A stretch of 64,000 bases of DNA from Cyanophora paradoxa CCMP329 (taxonomy: Eukaryota > Plantae > Glaucophyta), in NCBI GenBank assembly GCA_004431415.1, contig QPMI01000498.1, positions 1 through 64,000 of the forward strand, read 5' to 3'. Position 1 is the stretch's first letter; each line of letters opens with the position of its first letter. The position numbers were made by a program, and so were the translations under genes. Shown here one piece after another: positions 1-61,791 of this stretch. The notes under the pieces are model-generated. The model did not search any database. It worked only from the letters and a program-made list of their open reading frames with translations, and was not told where the DNA came from.

Positions 1-52
1 CCAACGGACTCGGAACTCGGAAAAGGGGGAGGGGAGAATGAACTTTGAAAAG

Positions 53-241
53 TTAGCGCCCGGCGGGGCGCATGCCGGCCGCCGCCTGCGAGCAGGAGCC
101 GGGGGCGTAGAGGGACTTGGCGGCGTAGCCGAAGCCCACGCCGATGACCGCCGAGGCCGTGGGGGTGCCGCCGAGGAGCCAGGTGAGGGTCGCGGCCAGC
201 GCTCCTAGCGAGTAATGGGCAGGATAAGCTTCGAAGGCCAT
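53..241 (-). CDS. Small (62 aa) hydrophobic/membrane protein, virus-like
   Basis: ATG at 241, MAFEAYPAHYSLGALAATLTWLLGGTPTASAVIGVGFGYAAKSLY...; two hydrophobic stretches; intronless; starts about 50 bp after the helicase stop. Confidence 0.5.
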   Translation of the reverse strand: MAFEAYPAHYSLGALAATLTWLLGGTPTASAVIGVGFGYAAKSLYAPGSCSQAAAGMRPAGR

Positions 242-290
242 CGCGGGACCGAATTGAGGGAGGGTTGAGAAAAAATACCGCCTCGGGGCC

Positions 291-3200
291 TCAGTGGTGC
301 AGGTGCCGGAAGCGCGCCTCGTCCTCGGCCTCCTCGCGCGCCGCCTGCTCCTCCGCCGCGTCGATCTCCGCCCGCGAGGCCTCCCGCGCCGCCCGCCTTG
401 CGTACGAGGTGGGCACCGGCGCCCGCCGGTAGCTGTAGCTGAGGCCCTTCGCCAGCTCCACGGTCCGTCCTCGAACGCCCGCCAGCTCTCCACGGCCTCC
501 GCCCGCGCTCGCGCGGAAGCCGCCTCCAGCTCGGCGCGGAAGGCGGCGGTCTCCTGCATGCGCCGGGCCCAGAGGCCCTGGCGCCGCTCCTCCGCCTCGC
601 GCGCCTGGCGCGCCGCCGCCGCCGCCGCCGCTCGGCCTCGCTGGGCCCCGAAGCCTGGATGCGCGGTGAGGACGGCGCCGGGGCCGGGAGGGGCTGGGGC
701 CGTCGGCGCTCGCGGAGGAGGCCGAGCTCCCGTAGCCGCTCGGGCCCGCGCCGCCGTTCGTCGGGGTACCCTGCCCTTGGATCAGGAGGGGGCGGGGGGA
801 GGGGGGGTACGGGAGGGAAGGCGGGGGTACGCGGGGCCGGACCTGGCGCGGCAGCATCTCGTCGATGCGCTGCTGGCCGGGGCGCTGCTGGGGGGCCGTG
901 GCGGGGGCTGGGGCGGGAGGAAGGCCGGCGCCGAGTTGCGGGTGCGCTTGCCCTTGCCCTTGGTGTGGGCTGGACGAGGAAGGCCCGACGTCGGCCACCG
1001 GGTCCTTGAACTGCGCGACGGGGATCGCGATCGCCTCCAGCGCCGGCTGGCTCTCGCCGAGGGAGAGCGGGCCTTGGGGACGATGCCGCGGATGTAGGTC
1101 TGCCAGACGCCGCCGAGCTTGTAGGAGTAGGGGCGGCACCAGGAGCCGAGCCGGCGAGGTCTCGTCCAGCCGGCCGTTCTCGATGTCGGCGCCGACGGCG
1201 GCGAGGTGTCGGGCCCTCCGTGCGCGCGATGTACTCGACGATTGCCCGCGACGCTCGTCATGTAGCCCTCCGTGTTCGGGGCGGCGACGTACGTGGTGGG
1301 GTCGACGGCGCAGTGGGTGACGATGAAGCGGGTGAGGGGCACTTGGTCGTCTCCTGCCAGAAGCCGAGGCGCTGCGCCCGCAGCCACGCCGGCTCGAAGG
1401 CCTGGATGCAGGAGGCCTTGCGTCGGAGAAGCGCGTGGATGATCTTCCACGCGAAGGTGAAGGCCGCGACCATGAGCGCCGGCAGCTCGTTCTCGCGGAT
1501 GTCGGAGTGGAGGTAGGTGCGCTTCTTGGCCGGCTTGTGGTCGAGGGGGATGAGGACGACGCGGGCGAAGAACTCGAGCATGCGGTTCTCGAGCTGCGCC
1601 GGGGCAAGTGAGAAAGGGCGCCGGGGAAGGGGAAGGGGGCAGGGAACGGGCGCACCTGCGGGAAGCTGTTGCAGACGATGACAAGCACCTTGCGCGTCGC
1701 CTTGGTGCGCACATCGTCACCGCGGACGTTCTTGAAGTTGCGGGAGTAGGCGTCGCCGGAGCGCATCTTGAGCTCCTCCTCCGAGCAGGCCTTAGGGTCG
1801 AGGCCCTCCGCCATCACCATGCAGATCGCCTCCTCGCCGCCGTGCTCCGAGAAGGCCGAGCCCTTGGAGGGGCGGTAGACGCAGACGCGCCCGGCGGCAG
1901 GCACTCCGTCATGATCTGCGTCACCATCGACTTGCCTGTGCCCGACTGGCCCTTGATGATGCCGCAGTACTGCAGCATGGCGCCCTCGGACGGCGGCTCG
2001 ATCTCCGCGCGCGGCTCCCGGTCGAAGACGGGCTTGTCGCAGAAGTTCCACGGCCCGACGAGGTTGAAGGCGTAGAGGACGGCCGCCGCGTAGCCGAACT
2101 CGTCGGCCGTCACGTAGCCGTTGTCCGCCAGGTGCTTGACGACGTTGGGCATGAAGGGGTGCAGCATGCCGTACACGGTGGGCCAGTCGCAGGTCTCGGT
2201 CGCCTCCTCGATGCCCGCGGGCAGGCGCCCCTGGATGTAGCAGGTGTTCATGTAGCCCGCGTACCGCTCCCGTGCCTCCTCGTGCGTCATGACGAGGACG
2301 CAGGCGCTGCCCGTGCTGTCCTGCGGCGCCCGCACCACGAAATCTGCGCAAGGGGCGTCGGCGGGGTACGGGGCGGGGCGCAGGGGTACGGGCGGCGCAC
2401 GCGTGTCGCAGGCGAAGGCGAAGCCGGGGATGACGGGCATCTCGGGGCAGACGTCCTCGAGCTGGAGGACTCCTCCACGAACGTGCGCGTCCGCCCCGAG
2501 AGCACCTCCTTCGAGAAGGTGAACTCGAAGGAGCCGGGGCTGGACTCGTAGGTCTTGTGGAAGGTCATCGCCAGCAGCTGGATGACCTCCTTCATCGTCC
2601 CGCGCCCGGCGTGCCTGTTCGCGCTGACCTTGTCGTACACGAAGAGGTTCGGGAGCTCGACGTAGAAGGTGGGCGGGGAGTTCGGGCCGTAGGGTCTCTG
2701 GCGCACGATCCGCTGCGCCGGCAAAAGGGGGTTAGCGGGGTTCGAACGCGGGGAGGGGGGCGCACCGGCCGAAGGCGGCTCGGACCCAGCGCCTTAAGCA
2801 GCTGGGCCACGGCCGCCTCCGGCCTCTAAAGGGGCGGGGCGCGCAGCTAAGGGGGGCGGGGCGCACGTTGTTCTTGACGAAGAGGCGGAGCGCATCCTGA
2901 ATGGCCGCCTCCTTCTTGGACTTGTTGTCCTTGCTGTACGTTGTCACGTCGTCGTACTTGGACATGTCGATCTCGGGCGCCTCGCGCGGCTGCGCCGCCA
3001 GCTCCGCCCGCGCCAGCTCCAGCCTGGTGGCGCGCGGCGGCTCGCCGTCGCTCTCCGACGCCTGGCCGTCGTCGTGGTCCGCCTCCGCCTCCGCCCGCTG
3101 ATCGCGCAGCAGCTGCCGCTCGCGCTCGCGCCGCTGCTGGGCCCGGCGGGAGAGGCGGCCGGCGCGGGGGGCCGGAGGGGGCGGAGGGGGCATGTGGCCG

Positions 3201-3739
3201 AGGGAGGAGGCGGGCGTGGCGACGGGCGTGCCCCGCGGCGGCGAGGGATGGGGCGGGCGAGGGGGTACCCTGGACGGAGGGCGGCGGGCGCTGCGAGGGC
3301 TGCGAGGGCGGAAGGGACTGAAGGCCGAGGGGTTGCCGCTCGGGCGCCAGGAGACGTCGGAGGCGGCGGGGCTGGCGGGGGGCACGGGGGCGGGCGGGCG
3401 GCGGGGGGAGACGAGGGGCGGCCTGGGGCCAGCGTCGCCGGGCTCGTCGTCCGAGAACTCCTCCACGGGCGGCGGCGGGGCGTACTCGAGGGAGGGGGAG
3501 GGCGGGAGGGGGTAGAACTCGTCGACGGGGGGCTCGGGCTCGAAGGTGTCCCCCGCCCCCGCCGCCGCCAGCTCGGCGTCGGCCTCGCCCTCGCGCTCGC
3601 GCTCGCGCTCCAGCTCCATCGCGTACTCCTCCGCCACCTCCAGCTCGCGCGCCGCCTTCGCGTCCGCCGCCGCCGCCAGCGCGGCCTCCTCCTCCATCTC
3701 GCGCTCGGCCTCCAGCTCCTCCTCTGTGGGCAGGGTCAT
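291..3739 (-). CDS. D5-like superfamily 3 helicase (multi-exon, several apparent frameshifts)
   Basis: Walker A IIKGQSGTGKS (~1928-1960), Walker B-like ICMVMAE, motif C LVIVCNSFP (~1660-1690), Arg-finger-like FFARVVLIP, C-terminal PLTRFIVTHCAVDP resembling the D5 winged-helix region; GTGCGC..AG introns. Confidence 0.75.
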
Positions 3740-5450
3740 TCCTTTGCGGCGCCGGAACGCCCTAGGCTCAGAATTTTGGGGTGGGGAGGGCGCACCGGCC
3801 GGCTCGGGGCCGGCCGCCTTGGGGCCGCCGCCTCCATCTGCTCGCCGAGATCGCGCCGCGCCGCCGGGGCGGGCACGTCCTCCTTCTCGAACTTGAGGTT
3901 GATGTAGGCGACCTTGCCCTTGCCCTTGCCCTTCGCCTGGGCCTGGGCCTGGGCCACGCGCATGGCGCGCGCGAGGCCCTCCGCCGTGATCTTGCTAACT
4001 CCGGCCCCGTCGCCGGAGGCGGAGGCCGTCGCCTCGCCGATCGCCGCCTTGAAGACGGCGGTCATCTCCCGGCCGGCGCGCGGCAGGCTCCGCGCCCGCT
4101 CGAGCTCCTCCTCCGTGAAGTCCAGCGCCCGGGCCGCGGCGGCGGCCTCGGCCTCGCGCTCCGCCTCGGAATCCGAGTCGGAATCCGAGGACTCCGCGGC
4201 CGCGAGCATGGGGCGGGGGCGGGAGGCGGCGGCGGCGGCGGCGGCGGCCGCCTTGTCGAAGACGGGGACGAAGAAGGTGAGGGCGAGGGTGCGCCGCGGC
4301 ACCACGTACTTCACGGCGCCGTGGATCATGGGCCGCCCGTGCGAGTCCGGCATCGAGCACCGGCGGATGACCTGCGAGGGGGTTTAAATGGCATCTAAAT
4401 AGTCTAAATAGCATCTAAATAGCATCCAAATAGAAACGGCGCACCTGCACGCGGTCGCCGATGGTGACGCCGGGCACCTCGAACTCAGGAACCAGGTCGA
4501 AGGCGCAGATGCCCTGGCGCCCGTGGCGGTCCCGGCACGTCCGGCAGGCCGCCTCCAGCACGATGCGGATGGCGTAGGCGTCGGTGAGGACGCCGGTGTC
4601 CGGCCGCTCGCCCCAGACCGCCGAGCTCTCGTGGCGCGTGATGAACGCGCGGCTGTTCCGCATGATGCAGCGCGCCTCGACGCCCATGATGCCCTTCGCC
4701 AGCCTCTGCGGGCCGGCGGGGGTCGGCGGGAGGGGCGGCCGCGGCTGCACGGGCGGCCGGGGGCGCACCTCGGGCGTGTAGGCCGGGTCCGAGCTGAGCA
4801 CCAGCAGCCAGAGCAGGTGCGGGGCCGCCTCCGCCATGCGGTTGAAGTAGAACTCCTCCGGGCCCGCCAGCAGGCCAATCGTGCGCCACTCGCCCTTGGC
4901 GATGTGCCGGGGCACGGCGCCCATGAGCAGCCGCAGGCGCTGCGCCGCGAACAGCCGGCGGGCGTCGGAATCGCGCCCGGGCTTCGGCTTGCTCGGCGTG
5001 TCGAAGTTCTCCTCCGTCATGTTCAGCGCCGCGTGCATCGCCCGCACGTCCGCGTCCTGCGAGCGCGGCGGCGCCTCAGCCGCTGCGAGCCGGGCGCGCG
5101 AGGGAGAAAGAGGCAGCGAGCACCTCCGCGAGCCGCAGCCGCGACAGGACGGAGTCGATGGAGAACTGCACCGACGGGCCGGGGGCGCCCTCGAGGTTCA
5201 AGGTCCGCGCCGCGGCCAGCTTGCGCTTGCGCTCGGCCAGCTCGGTCTTGCGCAGCACATCCTTGCTGTTCGGGCTGAACTGCATGCCATCCTCCAGCGC
5301 ACGCGCCTGCGCCTCCTTCGCCTGGTCGCTGATACCGGCCTCGAACACCGTCCAATCGACGCCGAAGCTGTCGCCGACGCAGAGAACGTCGTACAGCGTG
5401 TTCTTCGCCAGCTTAGCCGGGATCTCCGGAGGGAGCGCGAGCCGAGACAT
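3736..5450 (-). CDS. Unknown multi-exon protein; probably the N-terminal part of the helicase gene
   Basis: ORFs 5076-5450, 4415-5047 and 3736-4353 join in frame through GT..CAG introns (RLAE|DADV, DRVQ|VIRR); an intron at ~3742-3795 plus one indel would join it to the MTLPT... helicase ORF. Confidence 0.6.
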
Positions 5451-5757
5451 GCTGCTGCCGCCGATGCTGCCGCCGGTGCTGCGCGCGCTCTGCTGGGAGT
5501 GCTGCGCGCGCTGCGAAGGTTCTGGCGCCAAGGTCCCAGCCGATTTGAACGAGCGGCCTGCATTGCATCGCCGGACTGGGCAGTCAAAAAAAGCGAGAAA
5601 CCGACCGGGGTTCGAGCCCAAGGGGGGTACGCATTTTGAGGGGGGGGGGGGAAGCGGGCTTCAAGTCTGAGTCTTCGCGAGTTGGGGAGGGAACAAGCCA
5701 GCGGGGGTACGACGTTGAACGGAATCCGTTGAGACATCGCGGGCAGTAACACTCGCG

Positions 5758-8560
5758 ATGCAGGCGGCGACCTTCCGCTCGTGCGCGAAGCAGCAGCAGC
5801 CCGGCGAGCAGGACAGCATAGCCCGCGATCTCGGCAGCCTGTCGGCGGAGGAGGCGCTCAACGCGATGACCTGCGATAGCGTGTTCAACTCGGCCGGCGT
5901 GCCGCGCTTCGAGCCGTTCGGCGGGCTGAAGAAGATCCAGAACACGGACGGCCACCCGAAGCGCTTGAAGACCAAGGGCCAGTTCACGCCGGTGAATAAG
6001 TTCAACGAGGTTCGCGGTTTCGCCCGCACCGCTTCGGCCCCGGCTCACATGCCCGGCTCGCGTGCCCCGCGCGCAGATCGTGCCTTACAGCATTCACGAG
6101 CTGCCGGAGCATGTGAAGGCGAAGTACGGCTTCACGCACGGCGATGTGGCGCTGTTGCTGATGTCCGACAATGCGGCGGCGGGCTGCTTCAACAGCATCG
6201 CGCTCCATCGCGATTTCCATCCGCGCGCGATCTTCTCCGGCACTCCGGAGCAGAAGGAGTTCCTCGCGGACCTCAAATCCGGCAGCGGCGGCGCCCACGG
6301 GGTGAGGGCCCTTCCCTGCGCTCGCGTGCCCGCGCTTGCTCACGCGCGGGCCGCTGCAGCTCTTGATCGCGCGGGATCAGTGCCTGGCGTCGGTGACGGA
6401 GAAGGAGAAGGCCAGCCCGTCCGGCCTCGGCGTTCGGTGCGATTACGTCATCGTCACCAAGCGCATCAACCCGACGTACGCCAAGAAGTACGACCTCAAC
6501 TTCGTCTACGTGAAGGAGGGGCCGCCGGCCTCGCAGTACACCGTCACCGTCCAGGCCGGCATCTGCGCCGGCGAGACCATCCAAGGCGCGTACCACGGCG
6601 TCGGCACGCTCCCGTCCGGCGGCTTCTTCGACGTCGTTGATCACATGTTCCTCTCCTGCGCCGATGACATTTACGTGCGCGAGAGCCCGCCCTTTCCCCT
6701 TTCCCCTGCCCCTGCGCGCGCTAAGGTCGCGTCCGCAGGTCGGGGAGAACCCGAGCGCGGAGAGCCCGCTGGGCTACGCGTACTGGCTGGTCAGCGTGCA
6801 GAAGGTGCTCTCCTGCGCGGCCCTTCTGAAGTACGCCAGCGTCTGCGACTCCGGCATGCGGCCCCAGCTCCAGCTTCTCGTGGATCAGGGCCGGAGCGAC
6901 GAGACCCGCCAGCGCCACCGCGATCTCGCGCGGACGGCCGTGCTGAAGCTGGAGGAGGTTCTGCGCGAGGGCCACCCAAACGGGCCGGCCCGCGCCCGTG
7001 AGATCCTCTCGGCGGCCATCTCCGTGATCGTCGGCGAGCTCTCGCACACGGTCCGCCGCCGCCCCGCTTAGCCCGCCTCTCCTCCCTGACCCCGGGCCCT
7101 CGGAGCGCAGGAGGAGTCGGACGTTCTCACGGCGCGGGCGGACGAGTTCCAGCGCCAGGCGGAGAAGATCAAGTGCTGGTACGAGAAGGTGAAGAAGGCG
7201 GAGGAGACGGACCTGCGCGACTGGGGCAGCAAGAGCGGCGACGCCGAATTCGACCGCGACAAGCTCAAGCGCGTCTTCTTCTGGATGCGCATCTGCGCCA
7301 AGCTGGAGGCGCTGATGGACGAGTGGCACATCGAGGGCGTCCGTCTGGCGAAGGCGATGATCGCCATGGAGTGGGGCCACGGCCACCCGGCGCGCAAGGA
7401 GTGCAGCATGCTGGCCAAGGAGATCGGCCGCCGGGGCCGCTACATCAAGGAGGTGGCCTACGGCATCGAATGTGCGTCCGCCCCGCCCTTGGCCTGCGCC
7501 CCCGCCCTTGGCCTGCGCCCCGCGCTCTCCCCGCTCACCCCCTCTCCCGCAGTTACCATCCCGCTCGTCCAATTCTTCCAGCGCGAGTTTGTGCTGATCC
7601 AGGCCTCCATCATCAAGATCGGGTCGCTCTCCGCCAAGGAGGTGGACGAGGCAAGGGACGAGGGCCAGGCGGAGGCGGAGGCGCGCTGGGACGATGCGGC
7701 GTTCAGCGCCGTCTGGGGCGTCGGGGACAACGCGCTCTCGCCCCCCGCCCCGTTCGGCTTCAGCGGGCGGCCCGCGCTGGCGTTCGACGAGCACGGCCTC
7801 CCCGAGCTGGCGGAGGCGGACGCCGTCGGCTTCAACTGGGCGACGTTCGAGGCCCGCATCGACGAGAAGGCGAAGGAGGCGCAGATGCGGCTGCTGGAGG
7901 AGGGCCTCGTCCCGGCGCCGGTGCCCGCGCCCTTCCCCCTTCCTCTCCTCCTCGCCCCTCTCACCGCCTCCTCCAGCCCCCGGCGTCCTCGGCTCCGGCG
8001 CCCTTGGCTCCGGCGCCCTCGCCCCCGGCCCTCTGCCCCACCTACGGAGAGAGGTGCGCCCACGGCGCCGATTGCGCCCTCAACGGCTCCCACCTCCTGC
8101 CCGCCAAGAAGGCCCGCCTCGGCCTCTTCTCACCCCACCCTCTCAGCCCGGTGAGTGACTCTGAATCGGAGGGCTCGGAGGCCTATAGCACGCCCCGCGA
8201 CCCCGACGCCCCGCCCCACAAGGCCGGCGCCTTCGGCTTCTGTGAGTGACGCCCCCGCGCAGGCCCTGCCGACGCCGCCCGTCGCCAACCGCACCGTCTT
8301 CGTCCAGGTGAGTGCCAGGGCTGCCGCGAGTGGCGGCTCGAGAACTTCTCGGCTCAGGTCCCCGCCACGCAGCAGGCCGGCGCGATCCCGGCCTCGCCGC
8401 CCGTGACCGTCGACGTCGAGGGCGGTATGTTCGAGATGGAGCTGGAGCCGGCGCCCTCGCAGGCCCTCGCCACCCAGGGCTCGGCCCCGGCTCGCCGCCG
8501 CCGTCCCAGCCCTCCCTCCCGCTGGTGCACGCCAACTCCAACATCTTCGAGGGCTGCTGA
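5758..8560 (+). CDS. Unknown multi-exon protein, divergent from the helicase gene
   Basis: Coding-like exons in ORFs 5758, 6062, 6336, 6637 and 7189 joined by GTTCGC/GTGAGG/GTGCGC/GTCCGC..CAG introns; no recognisable family; 3' end approximate. Confidence 0.65.
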
Positions 8561-8819
8561 GGGCCCTGAAACGGTGCGCGCAGGCCCGTCCCGCCCTCCC
8601 AGAGCAAGTGGTCCACAACGCCATAGTGGACGCCATGTGGGATAACAGGGGCCGCCTCCCCACCCCTTCCGCTACGTCTCTATGGCCCTCCGCGGCCTCG
8701 CCTTCCCGCCCCCCTGCACCGAGCAGCTCAACCAAATCCTGCGCGGTCTGATTCATTACAGACTCGCCTACCCGGCCTGGGCCTGAGCTACACCAAGCTA
8801 CGGTGAGTCCGACCAAGCC

Positions 8820-8942
8820 CTGTCCCGGGTCCCGGGAAAATTTATATTAAGATTCCAAAGACCTGGGACAGAAGTAGTCTGACCAAGAGACGTGTCCGGA
8901 CCCTCCCAATAATCATATAGAGTATTGGAAAGGTCCGGACAC
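8820..8942. terminator. Twin stem-loops between convergent genes (putative 3'-end signals or origin)
   Basis: Arms 8820-8831/8860-8871 (11/12 match) and 8892-8911/8923-8942 (18/20 match) with AT-rich loops; each preceded by GTCYGACCAAG (8807, 8877). Confidence 0.5.
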
Positions 8943-9607
8943 TAGAGGAGGGCGTACGACTTAAACTCGCGCAGCGCCGCCTGCTCCTCGCTGAGGTTCT
9001 CTGACTTCATTCGATCGCTGTAGGGCTCGGGCGGCGTGCCCTCCTTGACGTGCATCCAAAATAGATGTAAGCACTTCCTCATGAGCTTGATGTACCTCTC
9101 GTCCCGTCTGACGTACCACGTTTGCACGCGCAGAGGAGTGAAGCAAAAAAGTTCGGCCCACTCGCGGCCCGTTATGTCCAGCAGGCCCTGGAGCTGGGGC
9201 ATGTAATAAGTTGGGACCTTTTCGTAGAGTTCTTGTTTGTAGGGGCATTTTATTTCAAGTATACGATCGCTTCCAATCAGCCCGTCCGGGCTGCCCGCCA
9301 GGAAGGGCAGTTCCTTATGTTCGTGCAATCCAGTATGTTGCACGTCCACGTTGTTGTTCGACGTTTTGTAGAGAGAGACCGCGAGGGGCTCATAGTCATG
9401 CCCATAGGTTAGGGCAGGGTTGTCAAAGTTGTTTTCCTCCGCTATCCCGCTTAGCTCCGCCCACAGGCGGGCCCTGGATTTCCAGGGATTTATGCCGCAC
9501 GCAGCCGCAAAGTTCGAGGCAGTTAGCTTTTCGCGGCGCGCCGCGTGCCACGCCGCGCTCCCCTGTTGCAAGTTCTCGCAAGTCTCGCAATCTGTATCGG
9601 TATGCAT
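8942..9607 (-). CDS. YqaJ-like viral recombinase / lambda-exonuclease family nuclease
   Basis: QGSAAWHAARREKLTASNF, YGHDYEPLA, FLAGSPDG, LEIKCP and YYMPQLQ motifs; intronless; lower GC than the host genes. Confidence 0.92.
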   Translation of the reverse strand: MHTDTDCETCENLQQGSAAWHAARREKLTASNFAAACGINPWKSRARLWAELSGIAEENNFDNPALTYGHDYEPLAVSLYKTSNNNVDVQHTGLHEHKELPFLAGSPDGLIGSDRILEIKCPYKQELYEKVPTYYMPQLQGLLDITGREWAELFCFTPLRVQTWYVRRDERYIKLMRKCLHLFWMHVKEGTPPEPYSDRMKSENLSEEQAALREFKSYALL

Positions 9608-9657
9608 GACTTGGTCTCGCAGTAGCGTTTAGAATTTCTTGATGTGTGCAATTGCAA

Positions 9658-10356
9658 ATGTCGGATGCAGAGGAAGCGCCCAAGGACGTGATCGCACAGT
9701 TCATAGATCAGGTCAAGGACCTTAGACGCTGGGTGGTAGAGCAGGCCTCGCGACCGAATCGACAGCGCCAACCCTGGCCGGTGCTGGAGCTGGCCCGGGC
9801 AGGGTGGCTGGACAGCCATTACAACTATGGCGGGGCCTCATACGTCCGGAGCCACGACGAGGGCAGGATTATCGACGAGTTCAAGCGCATCTGGTTCGCC
9901 CTGGGCTCCAAGCTCAGCATACTCTCGACCCTCCCGGACCACATTCGCATGCAAATCCTCGAGCGGTACGCGAAGGCAAGGGACTCGGAATGGGACGACG
10001 TAAATTTGCGCGACCTCTCGCGCTTGCGCTCGGCTGTGACGGCGTACGTCACGAACTATGAGTATCACACCAAAAAGCCCCAATTCGAAGTTGAGCCGAT
10101 TCCGGCAAATCTGGTACCCCTGGGCTGGGAAGAGTACCCCGAGTACTCGTGGAACAGGGGCCTCAACCCCCGGCGCCAGGCCCTGCCAGCCCCGCCCGCC
10201 CCACCGATAAACGCCCCCGCCCCACGTGACGTCGGGCGAGACATACGCGAATGGGAGGAGTGGAGCAACGACCCGAAGAACTGGCTACCCGAGGAGGCGG
10301 AGATGCGCAAGCGCGCGAGGCTGATGCCCGGCTACAAGTACCCCGACCGCGAGTAG
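9658..10356 (+). CDS. Intronless orphan protein (F-box-like motif LSTLPDHIRMQIL)
   Basis: Clean 232-aa ORF from ATG 9658, 50 bp from the YqaJ start; ordinary amino-acid composition. Confidence 0.7.
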   Translation: MSDAEEAPKDVIAQFIDQVKDLRRWVVEQASRPNRQRQPWPVLELARAGWLDSHYNYGGASYVRSHDEGRIIDEFKRIWFALGSKLSILSTLPDHIRMQILERYAKARDSEWDDVNLRDLSRLRSAVTAYVTNYEYHTKKPQFEVEPIPANLVPLGWEEYPEYSWNRGLNPRRQALPAPPAPPINAPAPRDVGRDIREWEEWSNDPKNWLPEEAEMRKRARLMPGYKYPDRE

Positions 10357-10393
10357 GGGGTACAGGTAGAAATTCTCAGCGAGCCGCGAGCGA

Positions 10394-11110
10394 ATGTCGT
10401 ACGGCGATCAGGAAGCATGGTTCAAGCTACACCGCCTCTTTCCTGATAAATTCGGCAATGCGCGCTACCCCCTCAACCTAATGACGCGAGTCAACCGGCG
10501 GACGAGGGACTTCAAAATCGAAGTGTTCTCTTCCTCTCCCGAGAGCGGCCGCTCCGCGGACAACGACGCTATGGCATGGCTGTACGGCTTTGTGCAGCCT
10601 CGGGTTGGTACTAGCCCGGCCACAGTCGAAATAGAGAGCTACTACAACGATTACGGGCCGCAGGGGGGGTACGGGACGCCCGAGCAGAATAACGCGATGC
10701 GGGGGGTAGGCAAAATCATGCTGCGGGCGGCTGTGAACGCGCTGCAACGCTCCGGGCTCATTAGCTCGTCGGACCCGGGCCAGCACCCGTTGGAGCTCAG
10801 GGCCCTCCCAGACGCAGTGGATTACTACCAAAGGGAATTGAACCTGCGTGAGAGACAGGTCGACTATAGGCCGTCCCTAATACCCATGGAGGGTACAGTG
10901 CAGAACATCATCGACAACACGTACAACGTGGCCGTTCGCTGGCGCAAAGCGGCGGCGGATCTCGTAAAGGGCAACTACAGGGACCTCGCAAACGAAGACA
11001 ACCCCGTGGGGGAGTACATGGAGCTGGCAAGCGGGAGCATCGTACCCCGCCGGAGGCCCCCATGGCCCCACCCCGACCTCGAGTGGGGACCGTCTCACTT
11101 CGGCCAGTGA
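10394..11110 (+). CDS. Putative GNAT-family acetyltransferase
   Basis: Acetyl-CoA-binding motif A-like MRGVGKIMLRAAV followed by motif B-like LELRALPDAVDYYQR; intronless 238 aa. Confidence 0.6.
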   Translation: MSYGDQEAWFKLHRLFPDKFGNARYPLNLMTRVNRRTRDFKIEVFSSSPESGRSADNDAMAWLYGFVQPRVGTSPATVEIESYYNDYGPQGGYGTPEQNNAMRGVGKIMLRAAVNALQRSGLISSSDPGQHPLELRALPDAVDYYQRELNLRERQVDYRPSLIPMEGTVQNIIDNTYNVAVRWRKAAADLVKGNYRDLANEDNPVGEYMELASGSIVPRRRPPWPHPDLEWGPSHFGQ

Positions 11111-11333
11111 GGGGGTACAGCATTCAGTTAGAGTCTGAGCATAGTTAGAGGCCGGAGGCCCCGAGGGGTACGTCGGACGTGTTAGTCCCCGTGCCTCCCC
11201 GAATGCAATATAACAATGCAACCTCCGCAACGCGTGACTCATCAACCTCCGAGGGTTAACAATACATTGACAGCGAAGGGGCAAGCTCGAGAGCTCAACG
11301 CTTCACAAAGGCCCACATATATATCGACGATAA

Positions 11334-11637
11334 TACTGTAGTCTGTGTATGTAGGCGTAGTTAAATTGCCGCGGAGTTAAATTGCCGAATTCGCCCAAAA
11401 CCGATTAATATTTGTTTTTGAGAGACTACGGTGGGGCGAACCCTCCGTAGGTATAAATAACTTATGTAAATTGCCGAATCCAGAATTCTGCTCTATGGCG
11501 GGCTAGGAACATGCCTAACCCCCCAAGCGATTAATATTGCCGCGGTGCTAAATTGCCGAATTCAGCCCCTCGGCGGCAATTTACGGCACTGGCGGCAATT
11601 TAAAACCACGGCAATCTAACTGCTCCGGCCTACAGTA
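11334..11637. mobile_element. MITE with TA ends and AAATTGCCG subterminal repeats
   Basis: TACTGTAG...CTACAGTA termini; imperfect inverted GTAGTTAAATTGCCG / CGGCAATCTAACTGC; many AATTGCCG copies. Confidence 0.6.
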
Positions 11638-11846
11638 CCGTACTACGCCGTAACTACGGTAGTACTACGTATACGGTACCATGTACCGGCTAGCGGCGGC
11701 TACTGCAGCGCTAGCTGACTCCGTAAAACACAATACTAGTAATATGACGGTCAAATTTATGTCGTTTAACAGTCGCGATCGTTAAGGTTATAAAACCCGA
11801 CCCTTGTCTATCGATATCTTTGATTTGTGAATCGCCGCTACCGGTA

Positions 11847-12111
11847 TACCGTAGAACACAATATTATGTCATGCGAATTTATGTCGTTTGAAAACCCGAG
11901 CCTTCTCTATGCGAAATATGACGTCCCCAAATTATGTCGGCATGAAATTTTCAGGCTTGTATGGGGCGGCAAAATTGGGGGGTACTGTATGGGGCGGCTG
12001 AGCGAGCCCGTATTATGACGTCCCCAAATTATGTCGTTTTGTCCCGTCCGAGGCGACATAATTTCGGGACGACATAATAAAGCACAGACCTTAATATTGT
12101 GTTCTACGGTA
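11847..12111. mobile_element. Tc1/mariner-pogo-type MITE
   Basis: Perfect 20-bp inverted ends TACCGTAGAACACAATATTA / TAATATTGTGTTCTACGGTA including the TA; internal ATTATGTCG repeats; degenerate partial copy at ~11718-11820. Confidence 0.8.
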
Positions 12112-12654
12112 GCGCTATAATACCCCGGCCCTTTCGCCGGGCATGAACAGTGCACACTGCACAGAGCTCCAAGTACTCCCCTGCAGCTGCAGCTGCACTC
12201 CTAGCTTGTCGGTACCAAGTACGGTACTTTTAACCTGTACCCAGCTAGAACTTGAGGGGGGGCGCAGTCCTATCTAGCTATAGCGCTAGCTATATATATC
12301 ATATATATATATAGTATAGCTAGTCCTATAGCTAGCCCGGCCTAGCCGCCTAGCTAGGCCCGCCAGACCATCGGATTATGATTCGGATACTATGCATATG
12401 ATATCGGCATGCGCATGTGTTCCGCGCAGTGATCGCCTACATAGCTACAGCTGCAGGCTACAGCCTACAGCTATAGCTTTAGCGCTAGCTATAGCTATAT
12501 ATAGCTACCTGGCGCCCGGCCAACTTGGCAAGCCCGCAGGCCGCTCTGCATCTCGGCCGAGTGGCGCCGGCGCGGCCGCGGCGCACTTTAATTTGCAATA
12601 TTAATTGCAATGCTGCGCGAGTGCCCCGCGGCCGCCCCGCGCGCGGGTGATCAT

Positions 12655-13356
12655 CAGTGATGGGAATGTTATTGATAACCTTTTTTATTAGTTAATTAAT
12701 AACTAATTAATAATACGTTATTAGTAAGGTCCCGGAACAGCCAATCTTATTAATAACGTTTATTAGTTCGGGGGGGTACCCATAGATACACCATTTCTTG
12801 CACTCTATGACGAATCTGTGCATGCTAGAGCTATATAAAGCAGTTCTATTCACGTCTAGAGACCTTCTGGGCACTTCTGCAGCTTTATATGATGCCCATA
12901 AGCTGATCAGACGGCAGCTCCAGACCATCCACTACCCCCTTGGTCGCACTTTGACCCTTTTATTCGACCCCCAACAGAGATAGAGGGCACTCGCAATGCT
13001 AAGACAGCTTATATAAGAGTGTTTAGCACCAGAAACGCGCGGCAGTGCTCCTTCAACGCGTGGTTTCGCGCTTCTATGAGGAAGTAATTATTAATCTACT
13101 AATAACTAATTATTAACTATTAATAATGATTCTTATAAAAGTCCCATTTTGGGGGTTCGAATGATGCCTTCCGTGTTCGAATCGCCCTGCGATGAGAATC
13201 ACGCCTTCGAATCCCGCCCGCTCCACATAATTCCGATCGATCATGTCCCACCTTGCCTGTATACGCCCCCGCAGTGCTGGAGTAGACTAGAGGCTGTGGC
13301 CGGTAATTCACCAAAAAAAAAACCCATTTTGGGGCTTATTATTAATTCCATCACTG
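12655..13356. mobile_element. hAT-type non-autonomous element
   Basis: TIR CAGTGATGG(G)AAT / ATTCCATCACTG; 8-bp TSD GTGATCAT at 12647-12654 and 13357-13364; AT-rich body. Confidence 0.85.
13155..13322 (+). mobile_element. SINE-like poly(A) retroposon nested in the hAT MITE
   Basis: Flanking 12-bp direct repeat CCCATTTTGGGG (13143, 13323); three TTCGAAT B-box-like motifs; tail GGTAATTCACC(A)10. Confidence 0.55.
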
Positions 13357-19228: not shown

Positions 19229-20000
19229 TGCCGCAGTGCCTGCCGCAGTGCCGCCCGGCCGGCGGCCGCGCCCGGCCGGGCCGCCGCCGCCCGGCCGGCG
19301 GCCGCCCCGGTTCATGCATATGCACCGTTTTTTCTCATTTCAGGTTCGAATTCATCGCTGTTATAAATTACCGTTCATGCATATGCGGCCGGGCCCCGGA
19401 TGTAGTGCGCCAAATAAAATGGCGCGCCATCTTATTTTTATGGCGCACGCTTTTGAGCCATCGCAGAAAAAAAGGCGCCGGCCAGCGCAGCCGGAGCTTT
19501 GCGTTGGGGAGTACTGCTAGGCTAGCTGTCGCGATCGAAATCGCCTATCATTATAGCCTACCGCCGGGCTACCGGTATAGGACCGCACTGGCGGGAAGCG
19601 GTCGGGGAGCCGCGCGCGCGCACCGAGCCCGAAGGCGCGGCCCCAGGCACATCAGCAATGAGGTGGTGGGAGCATCCAGATGTCAGAGACCTTCCCAACA
19701 AGTTCGAATGCAGGTGTCCACCCGCAGAGAATCTGTCCGGGCTCTGCGGCAATAACTTCCTGTGCAAGACTCTGTTTCCTAACATTCGCATCGACATGCC
19801 AGCAACGCAGCAGCGGCATCGTCATCGCAATCGAGCAACCAACAGCAGTCAGCACCATCGAGCGGCCAGCAGGCGCCGTCCACCTCGAGCGGACAGGCGG
19901 CGAGTTCGAGCAGTAAGCCGCGTAATCGAAAGCGGCCAAATACTAGTGAACCGCCGCGGCCGCGCGGGCGCCCTCGAAGCAGCCACCAGCACCTGCAGCT

Positions 20001-20842
20001 GTGGGCACAGATGGCGCAGCAGCTTCAGAATCACAGCCAGCAGAGGCAGCGGCTTCGAGCTCGAGCTCGAGGCAGCAACAACAAAAGAAGGGCTCGGCCG
20101 CAGCAGCCGGCAAGCGCATCGACACCACCGAATTTCGCCACCGAGTCCAGCGGATGTTCGCCGAATCCCGAGGCGCTGAACCGGTCCCAGCAGCATCAGT
20201 GCAGCGCGTAACTTTCGAAGAATATCGAGCCGCTATACAGCGTGTGAAGCCCGGAGCGGTGCTGCTATCTCGCGCCGACATCGAACACGTTAAGTACATC
20301 CTCGAAAACCCGGACGCGCCCGAGCCCAGCGGCAGCCCAGAGCATGTGAAGCGGGTGAAGAATTGGCGCGAGTTCATGAGGGGGAAGTACACGCTGCGCG
20401 AGGTTCCAGATCCGACAGACAACCTGACAGCGGAGGAGCTCGCCATGCCCAACCCGCGGCCAAGGCGCAAGCTTCGGCTGGTGGTGGAGAAGCAGGCTAG
20501 GTTGACAACCGCTTGAAGCGAGGAAATTCGGGCGACGCCCCCCCACTGGGCAGGGAGCTGGTGTCACAGTGTGTGACGAGGACATTTTCATCTGCATCCA
20601 GGTGCGATCGCGTTACAACGCAATTCTCTGCGCACGCGCAACGCATCTTCAACGCAAGCGTTGGGTTGCTAGCGTTGGACATTCTCAACACATGCGTTGA
20701 CCATGCGTGGAACAGAATACATTTTAATTTTTATGTCCACTGCATTGCACTGTTTGTGACGCGGTCATGATCGTGCGCAGCGCGAACACCTTGAGAGCGG
20801 GCACAAAGGTGGCACCGGTGTATACAACAATGCGAAGCAAAG
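20001..20842 (+). pseudogene. Truncated Ginger/KRBA2-like DDE integrase N-terminus (integrase H2C2 zinc-binding region)
   Basis: Spliced product ...KQ|GAGVTVCDEDIFICIQ (20554-20601)|REHLESGHKGGTGVYNNAKQR (20781-20842) matches the H-x3-GH-x-G pattern; upstream LSRADIEHVKYILENPD...WREFMRGKYTL; no DDE core follows. Confidence 0.55.
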
Positions 20843-52065: not shown

Positions 52066-52317
52066 CGTAGTTATGCTTAAATTGCAGCGTAGTTAAATTG
52101 CCGAATTCGACAAAAACCGGAATTGCCGTGACGATAAATTGCCGAAACTCTGGATTTCTTCTATGGTGCCATTGCCGCGCCAATGCCGGCGCCGCGCCAT
52201 ACAAAATCGGTCGTGTAGCCCTACCCCCTAAGAATTGCCGTGGTTTAAAATTGCCGAAAATCCGATTGCAATTTAAAACATCGGCTAAAAAAGCAATCCT
52301 ACACTGGACCTACAGTA
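52066..52317. mobile_element. Relative of the 11334-11637 AAATTGCCG MITE family
   Basis: GTAGTTAAATTGCCGAATTCG, multiple AATTGCCG copies, ends CCTACAGTA; left end unclear. Confidence 0.55.
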
Positions 52318-52498
52318 TATTACGGTATATGTATATATACTAGTAATGCCCGCAACCTCGGTACTACTAGTAGTCAACTCCCAGCGTACCAAGTACATGC
52401 ATTTGCAAATGCAAAGGCATGTTGACGTCGCTGGATTGCGAATATTAATGTGACCGTGCACGTGAATTCTCGAATTCGAATGGCGCCGGCACGATGAT

Positions 52499-53108
52499 GA
52501 CCGGCGATCGCTTGCGCAGGAGCTGCTTCAAGTTCGTCGCACCAGCCAACGCCAACGCCTGCAGTGCGTGCCCGCCTCCCGTAGCGCTGTGGGCATGCTC
52601 GCATAGAGATTCTCTATTCAATGCGATCGCTACATCTCTGCCCCGCGCTCTGACCGGCGATCGCTTGCGCAGGAGCTGCTTCAAGTTCGTCGCACCAGCC
52701 AACGCCAACGCCTGCAGTGCGTGCCCGCCTCCCGTAGCGCTGTGGGCATGCTCGCATAGAGATTCTCTATTCAATGCGATCGCTACATCTCTGCCCCGCG
52801 CATAGACCGGCGATCGCTTGCGCAGGAGCTGCTTCAAGTTCGTCGCACCAGCCAACGCCAACGCCTGCAGTGCGTGCCCGCCTCCCGTAGCGCTGTGGGC
52901 ATGCTCGCATAGAGATTCTCTATTCAATGCGATCGCTACATCTCTGCCCCGCGCATTCTGACCGGCGATCGCTTGCGCAGGAGCTGCTTCAAGTTCGTCG
53001 CACCAGCCAACGCCAACGCCTGCAGTGCGTGCCCGCCTCCCGTAGCGCTGTGGGCATGCTCGCATAGAGATTCTCTATTCAATGCGATCGCTACATCTCT
53101 GCCCCGCG
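52499..53108. repeat. Four tandem copies of a ~154-bp exon+intron unit
   Basis: Copies at 52499, 52652, 52806 and 52960; single copy at ~60406. Confidence 0.9.
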
Positions 53109-53300
53109 CATAGAGCCTTCTCATTGCTCGGCGATCGCTTTGTGTTCGGCGCCATACCCAGCGGATCCGATCTCTAACAAAGAGCTGCTGGGCCGGCGAT
53201 CGCTTCTGTGTTCTCAGTTCTAACGGTCGCCGCGGGCTTGACGTCCACAGCCTTCTCATTGGCCAAGCGATCGCTGGTTTTCGGTGTCTTATGCCCGTCT

Positions 53301-54290
53301 CCGCAGCATGCTGACCCCGGAGAGAGGAGGCGGACCTCCCTACCCCCGGAGTGCCCTCTTCGGGGGGAAGAGAGGACGTGGACCTCCTTCCCCTCTCCCA
53401 GCCCTCTTCGGAGGGCCCCGCCCCCGCCCTTCCGCCTCCCCCGGCCCCGCCCTCCCCCGGCCCCGCCCTCTCCCCAGCCCGCCTCTCCCCCCGGCCCCGC
53501 CCTCCCCCGGCCCCGCCCGGGCCCCGGGCGCGCCCTCCCCGGCCCCGCCCCGGGCCCGGGCCCGCCCCTCCCCCTGGCCCCGCCCTCCCCCGGCCCTGCC
53601 CCGGGCCCGGGCCCGCCCCTCCCCGAGCACCCGCAGCATGCTGACCCCCGGAGAGAGGAGGCGGACCTCCCTACCCCCCGGAGTGCCCTCTTCGGGGGGA
53701 AGAGAGGACGTGGACCTCCTTCCCCTCTCCCAGCCCCTCTTCGGAGGGCCCCGCCCCGCCCTTCCGCCTCCCCCGGCCCCGCCCCTCCCCCGGCCCCGCC
53801 CCTCTCCCCAGCCCCGCCTCTCCCCCCGGCCCCGCCCCTCCCCCGGCCCCGCCCCGGGCCCCGGCGCGCCCCTCCCCCGGCCCCGCCCCGGCCCCGGGCC
53901 CGCCCTCCCCCTGGCCCCGCCCTCCCCCCGGCCCTGCCCCGGGCCCCGGCCCGCCCTCCCCCGAGCACCCGCAGCATGCTGACCCCGGAGAGAGGAGGCG
54001 GACCTCCCTACCCCCCGGAGTGCCCTCTTCGGGGGGAAGAGAGGACGTGGACCTCCTTCCCTCTCCCAGCCCCTCTTCGGAGGGCCCGCCCCGCCCTTCC
54101 GCCTCCCCCCGGCCCCGCCCTCCCCCGGCCCCGCCCTCTCCCCAGCCCCGCCTCTCCCCCCGGCCCCGCCCCGGGCCCGGGCGCGCCCCTCCCCCGGCCC
54201 GCCCCGGGCCCCGGGCCCGCCCCTCCCCTGGCCCGCCCCTCCCCCCGGCCCTGCCCGGCCCCGGCCCGCCCCTCCCCGAGCACACGAACC
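53301..54290. repeat. Three copies of a ~330-bp unit with UUCG hairpins and C-rich GGCCCC arrays
   Basis: ccgcagcatgctgacccc... at 53301, 53631 and ~53969. Confidence 0.9.
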
Positions 54291-54341
54291 CCGAGCACAC
54301 GAAGCCTGGCCCGGGGCCTGAAGCCGGCGGGCCGGCCTCAG

Positions 54342-55573
54342 ATCTACAAGTACAGCGGCGAGCTGGACGCGGCGACCGAGCTCCTCGACCGCGCCCTCTA
54401 CTGCCTCGAGGCAGCCTGGTGCGGGGCGGGCGCGGCACGGGCGCGGCGGGGCGGAGGATGCGTTGCGCTGCAGTTCGTTCACTTGGTTTTGAGCTCCGTC
54501 CCCGGCAGGCACCCGCAGTTCAAGCCGGCGAGCGGCGCCTGCCGCCTCGACTTCGCAGTCATGGAGAACAAGTGCGCAGAGAACCCGTTGTACCCCGAGG
54601 ATAACCTGTACCCTCCTCCGGACTCACCCCGCCACCCCCAGGGCCTGGTCTTCCGGCGCCTGCAGATGCTCATTCGCGGCGGCTGCTCCCGCACCTCCCT
54701 CGGTACCCCTCGACCGCTTCCCCCTACTCGGATTCGAACCGAACGTCGTACCTCCAGAGACGGCCAAGCTGCTGCTTGCGCTGGACCCCGACAGTGACCT
54801 GATGGGGTGCTCCAGTGCATCGACTACTTCGCCCTCCGCGCCAGGTACCCCATAACCTTCCCCCCCCCCCCCAACTTCCCCCCCCCCACCTCATTTTTCT
54901 TCAGGGAGTACAAGTCCTTCTGGAGCTGGTGGCGGCGCCGGCGCTCCCGGGCGCTCCGCCTCGTTCGTGCGGGAGCCGCCCCTCTCGAGGCGGGAGCCGC
55001 CCTCTTCCTCCCATCGCCCTCAACTCCTCGGGTACCCCACTTAGCCTCTCCCCCTTTTTCCTGGCGCCGAGCCGGGCTCGCAGCGTACGCGCTCATGCGC
55101 GTGCGCGGGACGGCGGCGCCGCGCCCGTCGACGAGCTGGTGCCCTGCGCCCCTCCGAATCTCCTCTAAGACTGAAGCGCGGCAGGTCCTCCGGCGCCTCT
55201 TCTCGCACACGCTGGACCCCGCCTCGCCGGCGCCGCCCCGCCCTCTGCCGCGGCCCTCGCCGCCGCCCTCCTGCGGCAGGCGGTCCTCATGTACCCCGGC
55301 GCCGTCCGCCCCTCCTCGAGAACTACAACGTCAAGCCCGACTCCGGGGTGCGGGGGAGGGGCGGGACTCCGACAAGGCGAGCGTCTTTCCTCTGAGCTTC
55401 TTTACTTTCCGAGTCCTGAGCGGCTCTCTCCTTTGCTTCTTCGTTCACAGGGCGCCAGGGGCTGGGCCGCCCTACACAGGCGGCCCCTCTTCGACGACGA
55501 CGAGCCGGCCGCCAGCGTCGAGCTCCCGCCCCTGACTGCCGGGATCGGACCCTGGACGAGCTCAATGCTTTGA
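54342..55573 (+). pseudogene. TCF25: TCF25/Rqc1 internal fragment (multi-exon)
   Basis: ELLDRALYCLEAAW|HPQFKPASGACRLDFAVMENK|..QMLIRGGCSRTSL|ETAKLLLALDPDSDLMGVLQCIDYFALRAR|EYKFL, LRQAVLMYPG; N- and C-terminal parts are missing. Confidence 0.8.
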
Positions 55574-56600
55574 AGCAATTGCAATTCTTGAGCTCGGTGC
55601 GTTTCTTACAGCAACTTATCTTGCGATTCTGCTCTCAATATGCTGTTAGGTGGCGCTCGAGTCGAGACGCTTGCAAAAGTAACAACGGGCTGCGCACGAC
55701 CGCCGGTCTACATTCAAAGCGAAGTGTTGGGTCGACCGGGTCCTGGAGGTCCTGTTCTCCCCGCGCGCGCTGGGTCGGGTGGTGTGCAGTGGCCACCACC
55801 TGCGCGATCCGACAGCATGCGCACCATTTGTGGTCACGTCCACAGAGTGTTCCGCGCGCCCCGCGCGGGCGTCCTGACATCTTCGCGAACGAAGAGCAGG
55901 CAAAAGGGCTACTGCAGCGGTGCAAGGCTTTTGTAGGACTGCAGATAGCCTGATTCCGCATGCAGCTATAGTCTAGGGTTCTACGACATCGTTGGTTTTG
56001 TATGAGATCAATTTCACGAGGCCGAACTCTGTACCCTTCGATCGCAAGTTAGCCACCGGTGGCTAACTTAGGGGGGAATGAACAGGGGGAGAAGCGCAGG
56101 GGGAAGAATAGGAAAAAAAAGGAACTTCCGCGCGCCCGGCCATGCATGCAGCGCGCGAATTCCGTCCGCTGCGCATGCGCACTGCCGCGCGCACGCCGTG
56201 CTCAGCCCCGCGGCGCCACGCCCGCCCCGCAGGCGTCTTCGCCGCGCCCGCGCACGCGAGGAGTACACATCGCTTGCTTCATCGGCTCACCCGCGGCGCC
56301 GGCGGCGCGCTAGCTACACGCTTTCGCTTGTCCGAGGTACTCATCTTCGAATTCTGCAGCCGTCGCCCCATCCTCGGCAGCTGTAAGGCGGCGCGCAGGG
56401 ACTCGAGCTCTCAACTATGGCGTCGCCCGGCGGGCCCAGCGCAAGCAGCTCTGAGCCAGTAGGTCCGTCCCGGAACCGCCCCTCGGACCTGCCTGGGCGC
56501 GCTGTCTTCCGATCCTGCTAAAAAACGTGTTTTCGGGGCGACATTTTGGCACTATGTTCACTATCTCGCCCGCGCTAGAGGGAGAACGTCGTACCTCCAG

Positions 56601-57421
56601 AGACGGCCAAGCTGCTGCTTGCGCTGGACCCCGACAGTGACCTGATGGGGGTGCTCCAGTGCATCGACTACTTCGCCCTCCGCGCCAGGTACCCCATAAC
56701 CTTCCCCCCCCCCCCAACTTCCCCCCCCCCACCTCATTTTTCTTCAGGGAGTACAAGTTCCTTCTGGAGCTGGTGGCGGCGCCGGCGCTCCCCGGGCGCT
56801 CCGCCTCGTTCGTGCGGGAGCCGCCCCTCTCGAGCGGGAGCCGCCCCTCTTCCTCCCCATCGCCCTCAACTCCTCGGGTACCCCCACTTAGCCTCTCCCC
56901 CCTTTTTTCCTGGCGCCGAGCCGGGCTCGCAGCGTACGCGCTCATGCGCGTGGCGCGGGACGGCGGCGCCGCGCCCGTCGACGAGCTGGTGCCCTGCGCC
57001 CCTCCGAATCTCCTCTAAGACTGAAGCGCGGCAGGTCCTCCGGCGCCTCTTCTCGCACACGCTGGACCCCGCCTCGCCGGCGCCGCCCCCGCCCTCTGCC
57101 GCGGCCCTCGCCGCCGCCCTCCTGCGGCAGGCGGTCCTCATGTACCCCGGCGCCGTCCGCCCCTCCTCGAGAACTACAACGTCAAGCCCGACTCCGGGTG
57201 CGGGGGAGGGCGGGACTCCGACAAGGCGAGCGTCTTTCCTCTGAGCTTCTTTACTTTCCGAGTCCTGAGCGGCTCTCTCCTTTGCTTCTTCGTTCACAGG
57301 CGCCAGGGGCTGGGCCGCCCTACACAGGCGGCCCCTCTTCGACGACGACGAGCCGGCCGCCAGCGTCGAGCTCCCGCCCCTGACTGCCGGGATCGGACCC
57401 TGGACGAGCTCAATGCTTTGA
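56601..57421 (+). pseudogene. TCF25: TCF25 partial copy 2
   Basis: Duplicate of exons from ETAKLLL onward. Confidence 0.75.
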
Positions 57422-61740: not shown

Positions 61741-61791
61741 CGAGCACACGAAGCCTGGCCCGGGGGCCTGAAGCCGGCGGGCCGGCCTCAG

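Follow-up and report, generated by a model that had tools for sequence, protein, structure and literature searches.

The first 11,335 nucleotides of the DNA analysed here, a 64,000-nucleotide stretch of contig QPMI01000498.1 (the window), form the rightmost 11.3 kb of an element whose family is dispersed in many copies through the genome of the glaucophyte Cyanophora paradoxa. The cluster encodes a D5/P4-like superfamily 3 (SF3) helicase, a YqaJ nuclease and several orphan proteins, and lies in eukaryotic, GC-rich DNA with short introns of the GT-AG type. We read it, with a probability of about one half, as a virus-derived element that has no capsid and spreads like a transposon inside the nucleus, probably derived from a Polinton-like virus (PLV).

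Searching with a helicase exon returned 21 C. paradoxa gene models at 64–100% identity and nothing else among 531 candidates, and when 1.84 billion representative proteins were scanned in full all eight matches came from Cyanophora; neither set holds a sequence-level relative of the helicase outside this genus. Helicase models were located on 23 contigs (23 models), many copies being 99–100% identical within the helicase exon and subfamilies diverging down to 64%; amplification of the family is recent. One model (P0050) shares the private frame breaks of the window and is probably the gene model of this very locus. Element genes were found on at least 60 named contigs of an assembly of 712 (PMC6704402), all such counts being lower bounds as one name is shown per distinct sequence. 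Gene order is conserved: on 8 of 8 named contigs YqaJ lies no more than eight gene numbers from a small gene of the left-hand part (a U gene), a proximity that the helicase shows on 13 of 23. PLVs occur in multiple dispersed copies of 14–40 kb, and the family agrees with them in this, with 60 contigs, a conserved order and a unit of at least 11.3 kb plus three genes. Rather than single-copy, non-syntenic genes with orthologues dispersed in related host genomes, the outcome that the first-pass annotation had set against its own reading, we found multi-copy, syntenic genes and no dispersed host orthologues.

Read depth places the right end of the element. Short-read contigs over the cluster are 16–34 times deeper than the flank in run X1 and 14–46 times deeper in run X3, a ratio that does not equal copy number, and contigs at 11483–11905 and 12087–12710 have single-copy depth. 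As the depth has fallen to single-copy at 11483–11905, the end of the element lies at 11335 or slightly to its left, ahead of a first miniature inverted-repeat transposable element (MITE)-like repeat; the flank beyond is single-copy and then holds host-like genes. To the left, a mis-fused gene model (P0044) runs over the edge of the window, showing that the element continues there. Of the 38 proteins returned by a search with its tail, 37 come from Cyanophora and the remaining one is environmental. These proteins resolve into three small genes (U1–U3) of the left part, so that the element as seen spans ~14 kb and nine genes. Being multi-copy and syntenic, continuing to the left and ending by 11336, the cluster holds up as the right-hand portion of a large mobile element of virus-like kind, as had been proposed from the letters alone; the endogenous virus named in the same proposal is the less probable reading. 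At 8699, a contig present in DNA runs X1 and X3 links the element with 201 letters of unrelated sequence, which may reflect a truncated copy or a second element having only the YqaJ arm in common.

The helicase gene was mapped exon by exon against another copy (P0043). A model of two minus-strand genes (3736–5450 and 291–3739) with an ATGA overlap was rejected, since the mapping shows one gene of ~1,500 aa; with both halves counted as one, the six or seven genes first proposed become six in 1–11335. The predicted protein consists of an orphan N-terminal domain, a low-complexity linker, the D5/P4-type SF3 helicase and a C-terminal coiled region. Its motifs follow the SF3 order (Walker A GQSGTGKS at 1928–1951, Walker B-like VMAEG, B′ ELKMRSGD, motif C CN and an arginine-finger FARV), yet no D5 or SF3 profile of Pfam, PHROGs or NCBIfam matches it, D5_N and TIGR01613 included, and the best Pfam match is AAA_22, below the cut-off (E 0.002–0.2) in 17 of the 21 helicase models. 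Likewise, PDB sequences gave no match for it; tblastn searches against phages and plasmids gave nothing better than an E of 1. In contrast, an hhalign comparison of a profile built from 14 phage P4/D5 helicases with nine Cyanophora copies reached 95% probability (E 2.8e-8, 187 columns); the alignment runs from Walker A to the arginine finger, taking in B, B′ and motif C at the SF3 spacing, and on into the helical region that follows. The score was 94% after removal of a single phage chosen by its own weak match, and 20 column shuffles gave 1.6% or less. The claim of an SF3 helicase is therefore supported by profile–profile comparison and not by direct library profiles, and judged by this alignment the protein is a very divergent D5/P4-type member.

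The protein has its Walker A, B, B′ and C motifs and its arginine finger in the same order as the phage P4 alpha and poxvirus D5 primase-helicases, and the helical region behind them aligns as well. It differs from both in that no AEP (archaeo-eukaryotic) or DnaG primase was detected, an orphan domain of 320 aa and a linker of 400 aa preceding the helicase instead; no primase profile of Pfam, PHROGs or NCBIfam matches the N-terminal part. The 320-aa domain is near-invariant among copies and contains a Cys/His cluster. Its single-sequence AlphaFold model is poor (mean predicted local distance difference test, pLDDT, 40), and a fold search with it was not significant. In PLVs the replication gene is a protein-primed polymerase or an SF1/SF3 helicase fusion, and the element has one of the latter kind, an SF3 helicase fused to an orphan domain.

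In the window the helicase gene has more than 12 frame breaks of 1–2 bases. At 653, 661, 685, 902, 1068, 1202, 1210 and 1242 the DNA runs have contigs with the alternative state, and most of these breaks are also contradicted by RNA-type runs. They are thus likely long-read errors, although the contigs pool all copies and cannot prove this copy intact; decay was rejected as their cause on the same grounds. RNA-type contigs end at the helicase intron borders 842, 4369 and 5123.

Splicing is seen more fully in gene C, an orphan gene oriented divergently to the helicase gene. In X15 and X17, runs from two studies, contigs skip its six GT-AG introns, which separate seven exons and are kept in the DNA runs; skipping them leaves open a frame of 701 aa. 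We call X15 and X17 RNA-type by guess, no listed run being recorded as RNA, and their transcripts pool copies and cannot be assigned to the copy in the window. Gene C may continue via further introns to a stop at 8784–8786. Its exons match no family in profile or sequence libraries. A C-x6-C-x5-C-x5-H stretch at 8034–8100 stands beside a basic PAKKAR motif; the two resemble a CCCH-type zinc finger plus a nuclear signal, for which there was no profile match. One 27-aa motif occurs twice, once near the N-terminus of the helicase and once in gene C (DNA 77.5% identical over 80 nt, E 6e-12), which suggests an internal duplication or a common binding module. Together the two large genes hold 14 spliceosomal introns at conserved places, and the core has a GC content of 69–73% against 69–72% for the host part of the window, the intronless right arm having 57–63%.

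The nuclease was identified correctly at first sight as a canonical YqaJ (Pfam E 6e-30, PF09588 at 104.9 bits against a cut-off of 22; NCBIfam TIGR03033 E 7e-30), with the SPDG and EIKCP motifs of a PD-(D/E)XK nuclease invariant. It is 90–93% identical to 14 C. paradoxa accessions. In a tree of 54 rows, the phylogeny that had been proposed as a check, the window groups with P0001, P0002 and P0004 (support 100/98) and the sister group is left unsettled for want of support. Outside Cyanophora, close relatives of YqaJ and U1 are confined to environmental proteins from short contigs of 1.6–1.9 kb, P0002 and P0004 at 50–63% identity for YqaJ and P0084 at about 60% for U1. They suggest relatives beyond the C. 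paradoxa genome, and possibly members of this family in other algae. Relatives of the other element genes are absent from the YqaJ loci inspected (80 of 195 from metagenomes, and 80 of 424 plus one from IMG/VR). The best of them, a metagenome locus (L095:1938–10381), pairs YqaJ with a D5 helicase beside SSB, Rad52 and two HNH genes; it is prophage-like and was rejected as a relative, being the same gene pairing in a bacterial virus.

To the right of YqaJ the copies differ. Orphan E is missing in some of them (joint 9662>10356) or swapped for an open reading frame (ORF) ending at the same stop position. In front of the spacer, at 10354, three of four DNA runs show variant sequence with a terminal TGA, behind it, at 10391, three of four show variant sequence that starts with ATG, and before 11110 all four show variant sequence; these tallies come from the rows listed, each variant being 30 letters of loose sequence from short collapsed contigs. 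The depth of orphan G is about half that of gene C. This pattern suggests a conserved core with exchangeable intronless right-arm cassettes. Orphan G had been taken for a GNAT acetyltransferase, for which no support emerged: no match was found in Pfam, PHROGs, NCBIfam or PDB sequences, the single-sequence AlphaFold model has a pLDDT of 42, and fold searches were not significant, with two GNAT-labelled rows at ranks 32 and 47 among 50 listed (E about 0.1). Its GNAT-like motifs are such by eye only, and a GNAT fold with an acetyl-CoA motif A was not confirmed. Orphan G is barely covered by RNA-type contigs, which does not show that it is silent.

The first-pass annotation had remarked that no capsid, protein-primed polymerase (pPolB), packaging ATPase or integrase is visible in this part, and library scans agree with it. 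Among the nine genes seen (~14 kb, the left part lying outside) there is no match for a double-jelly-roll capsid or penton protein, the only P-loop is that of the SF3 helicase so that an A32-like packaging ATPase is not found, and integrase, rve or tyrosine recombinase profiles do not match. No primase or polymerase was identified, and the earlier suggestion of self-replication draws on the helicase alone.

If our reading is correct, the SF3 helicase would unwind the element for copying by a host polymerase, the same helicase-driven copying by the host that has been proposed for the polymerase-less mriyaviruses (10.1101/2024.02.29.582850). The helicase N-terminal domain or gene C would recognise the origin or the ends of the element, and the 27-aa motif would let the two bind each other or a common partner. 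YqaJ would resect DNA ends, allowing recombination between copies within the conserved GGGGTAC-led spacers and a trade of right-arm ORFs as cassettes; end resection would explain the cassette exchange. The integrating enzyme would be one of the orphans or be encoded to the left of the ~14 kb seen. Tentatively, and on balance doubtfully, the family could even represent a new class, a capsid-less and intron-rich descendant of double-stranded DNA viruses that combines D5-type helicase copying, an orphan integrase from a family outside those recognised, and YqaJ-driven cassette swapping. Several points weigh against a capsid-less element that spreads like a transposon. The ~14 kb seen hold no identified integrase, transposase, primase or polymerase; with one end in the window and the left end, terminal inverted repeats (TIRs) and target-site duplications not seen, the mobility of the element is an inference from its dispersal. 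The lack of a capsid applies only to the part seen, and the small proteins of membrane type encoded beyond the left edge, with hydropathies of 1.8 and 2.6, fit a virion better than a transposon. Introns do not rule out a virus, as Polinton-like elements may acquire them once they are integrated (PMC11957031), and the cassette variants may be subfamily differences fixed once rather than ongoing swapping.

The strongest alternative, somewhat less probable in our judgement, is that the cluster is an arm of a complete Polinton-like provirus whose capsid, penton, ATPase and integrase lie further left and whose copies arise by reintegration of the virus. The genome is known to contain PLVs: 366 PLV capsid genes (PMC10120064) and 156 elements with rve, pPolB, D5 or SF1 genes (PMC12220804) are reported from C. 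paradoxa; the main text and supplement file 1 of the latter do not mention YqaJ. Helicases of PLVs frequently carry a fused, uncharacterised domain (PMC10120064), replication modules are exchanged frequently (10.64898/2026.06.19.733378), and the ~14 kb seen would be half to most of a 15–30 kb PLV. The element shares with PLVs its size class, a number of dispersed copies in the dozens, closely packed genes, accessory genes that vary near an end, and an SF3 helicase fused to an orphan domain in place of pPolB. It differs from them in lacking, within ~14 kb, a capsid, penton, A32 ATPase, rve or tyrosine recombinase, in its spliced transcripts and host-like core GC, in a helicase missed by D5 profiles, and in that TIRs were not seen. 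D5_N or TIGR01613 mark 13–40 of the 156 annotated elements (PMC12220804) and do not match this helicase. The 14 introns at conserved places and the host-like GC of the large genes are unlike the protist PLVs described, which are intronless; the surveys predicted genes without introns. Small membrane-type genes at the left favour a virus, as might one of the six capsid-bearing contigs listed, which also carries a left-hand small gene; that overlap comes without a distance, however, and is expected by chance with element genes on 60 of 712 contigs. Viral genes of this alga are reported to be mostly methylated and methylated genes to be mostly silent (PMC12344493), yet gene C is spliced. Pattern scans of IMG/VR, which are weak and detect close relatives only, found no relative of the helicase, orphan G, a gene C exon or U1. 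Overall, the small membrane-type genes favour the virus, and the introns, host-like GC and splicing favour a transposon.

A conventional cut-and-paste or rolling-circle transposon, with gene C or the helicase N-terminus as a divergent DDE or HUH transposase and with helicase and YqaJ captured, is improbable. Helitron, Academ and ISL2EU are eukaryotic DNA transposons that encode a helicase or YqaJ; YqaJ-type nucleases occur in some of them, such as ISL2EU, and Helitrons carry a nuclease fused to a helicase. The two large, divergently oriented, intron-rich genes with host-like composition would suit this explanation, as would the nuclear spread and accessory nuclease or helicase shared with these transposons and with Tlr1 (named in PMC12220804). 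However, library scans with DDE and HUH profiles match neither the fused helicase protein nor the gene C exons, a tyrosine recombinase is likewise lacking, and the helicase is of the D5/P4-type SF3 and not the Pif1-type SF1; no Helitron Rep or Pif1 match above the cut-off was found in 21 models, and no Helitron-type hairpin plus CTRR end is evident in 11111–11335. The membrane-type genes and the cassettes are further differences.

An even less probable origin is an amplified fragment of a giant endogenous viral element (GEVE) or of a mriyavirus-type insertion. D5 helicases and YqaJ are common in Nucleocytoviricota. GEVEs and other giant-virus insertions are reported in C. paradoxa (PMC12344493), and the SF3 helicases of mriyaviruses bear uncharacterised N-terminal domains (10.1101/2024.02.29.582850). 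Both these and the dwarf viruses resembling nucleocytoplasmic large DNA viruses (NCLDVs; Phaglo-G) combine such a helicase with the lack of a polymerase, and an integrated, GC-rich Phaeocystis element carries a YqaJ label in its figure (10.1101/2022.07.28.501842). In contrast to them, the Cyanophora element is intron-rich and high-copy, with none of the NCLDV or mriyavirus markers (capsid, the late transcription factors VLTF2/3, HUH endonuclease, A32) among nine genes; its YqaJ clade has no supported giant-virus sister, and a fixed gene order on dozens of contigs suits a self-mobile unit rather than a decaying GEVE. Finally, the view that segmental duplication or a redundant assembly has multiplied a cluster of host genes, to which the host-type introns and GC and the many copies 99–100% identical in the helicase exon would lend themselves, is largely refuted by the drop to single-copy depth directly after the cluster, by subfamilies down to 64% identity, by short-read depth that is independently multi-copy and by the exclusively Cyanophora matches in the protein scan.

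The family is apparently undescribed; no description was found in the literature searched, which did not include Repbase, most subscription papers or the per-element data of the surveys. Capsid-gene surveys assume intronless genes and transposon libraries rely on known transposases, and a family of about 30–60 copies with host-type introns, spliced transcripts and neither marker in view would escape both. If the element has no capsid, it would be a direct example, in a cultured model alga, of the proposed step from Polinton-like virus to transposon, with an unfamiliar integration enzyme; if a capsid is present, it would belong to an intron-laden virus group hidden from current screens. In either case well over 100 predicted host proteins of the alga (helicase, YqaJ and small-gene models) are element genes.

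Table 1. Features of the element and its right flank (positions in the window; minus-strand introns are given 5′ to 3′).
Feature	Position	Strand	Basis or remark
U1, 159 aa	left of window		hydrophobic segment C-terminal
U2, 108 aa	left of window		strong hydrophobic segment
U3, 134 aa	left of window		basic tail
Small 62-aa ORF (MAFEAY...)	53..241	-	weakly hydrophobic, peak hydropathy 1.27
Helicase gene, ~1,500 aa, 9 exons	291..5450	-	exon map against P0043
Helicase introns, eight, GT-AG	5123-5057, 4768-4706, 4444-4372, 3795-3724, 2866-2713, 2400-2344, 1655-1594, 842-771	-
SF3 helicase core	1295..1972	-	profile–profile alignment and controls
27-aa motif, helicase N-terminus	5286..5366	-	recurs in gene C
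Gene C, orphan, 7 exons, open frame of 701 aa	5758..8249	+	RNA-type contigs skip introns
27-aa motif copy in gene C	7825..7905	+	common to helicase N-terminus
Two adjacent hairpins	8820..8942	.	between convergent genes gene C and YqaJ; vary among copies
YqaJ/lambda-exonuclease, 221 aa, intronless, 57% GC	8942..9607	-	Pfam, NCBIfam
Orphan E, 232 aa, intronless	9658..10356	+	not in every copy
Orphan G, 238 aa, intronless	10394..11110	+	GNAT-like motifs by eye only
Non-coding right arm, high copy	11111..11335	.	depth tables; joint 11155>11243
MITE-like element, TA-flanked, 42-nt arms 79% complementary	11336..11635	.	separate repeat family
Second MITE-like element, perfect 20-nt inverted arms	11847..12111	.	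outside the element

The genes are tightly packed, as had been noted, with spacers of 49, 50 and 37 bp at 242–290, 9608–9657 and 10357–10393. The peptide of the small ORF at the left edge recurs in other copies (P0066, P0073, P0074). A GT-AG intron at 205–278 (minus strand) is spliced in RNA-type contigs, with a joint 203>278 in X15 and X17; its removal drops the start codon of this ORF in some transcripts, so that one transcript may extend from the helicase through the next gene. The hairpins reported between the convergent genes are a pair at 8820–8871 and 8892–8942 (z −7.1; none of 200 shuffles folds equally well), and joints and loose ends of read contigs cluster around them at 8817–8952.

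Of the MITE pile described at the right edge, two MITE-like elements are present and neither belongs to the multi-copy element: the first is carried by 15–19 contigs per run with unrelated flanks. A related second arm of its family lies at 52077–52119 (90.7% over 43 nt). Further into the host part, 52496–64000 consists of layered tandem repeats with units of ~153 bp, 335 bp and 1.85 kb, the 1.85-kb unit being present in at least four near-identical copies. Dinucleotide shuffles predict 7.4 occurrences of the 7-mer GGGGTAC in the window, which has 113, spread over host genes, introns and the spacers of the element; it was for this reason rejected as an element-specific signal and is read as a genome-wide motif. 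The segment 19640–20760 is intronless and of lower GC, with a 188-codon open frame (19950–20513) and repeat-like flanks, and may be a transposon fragment.

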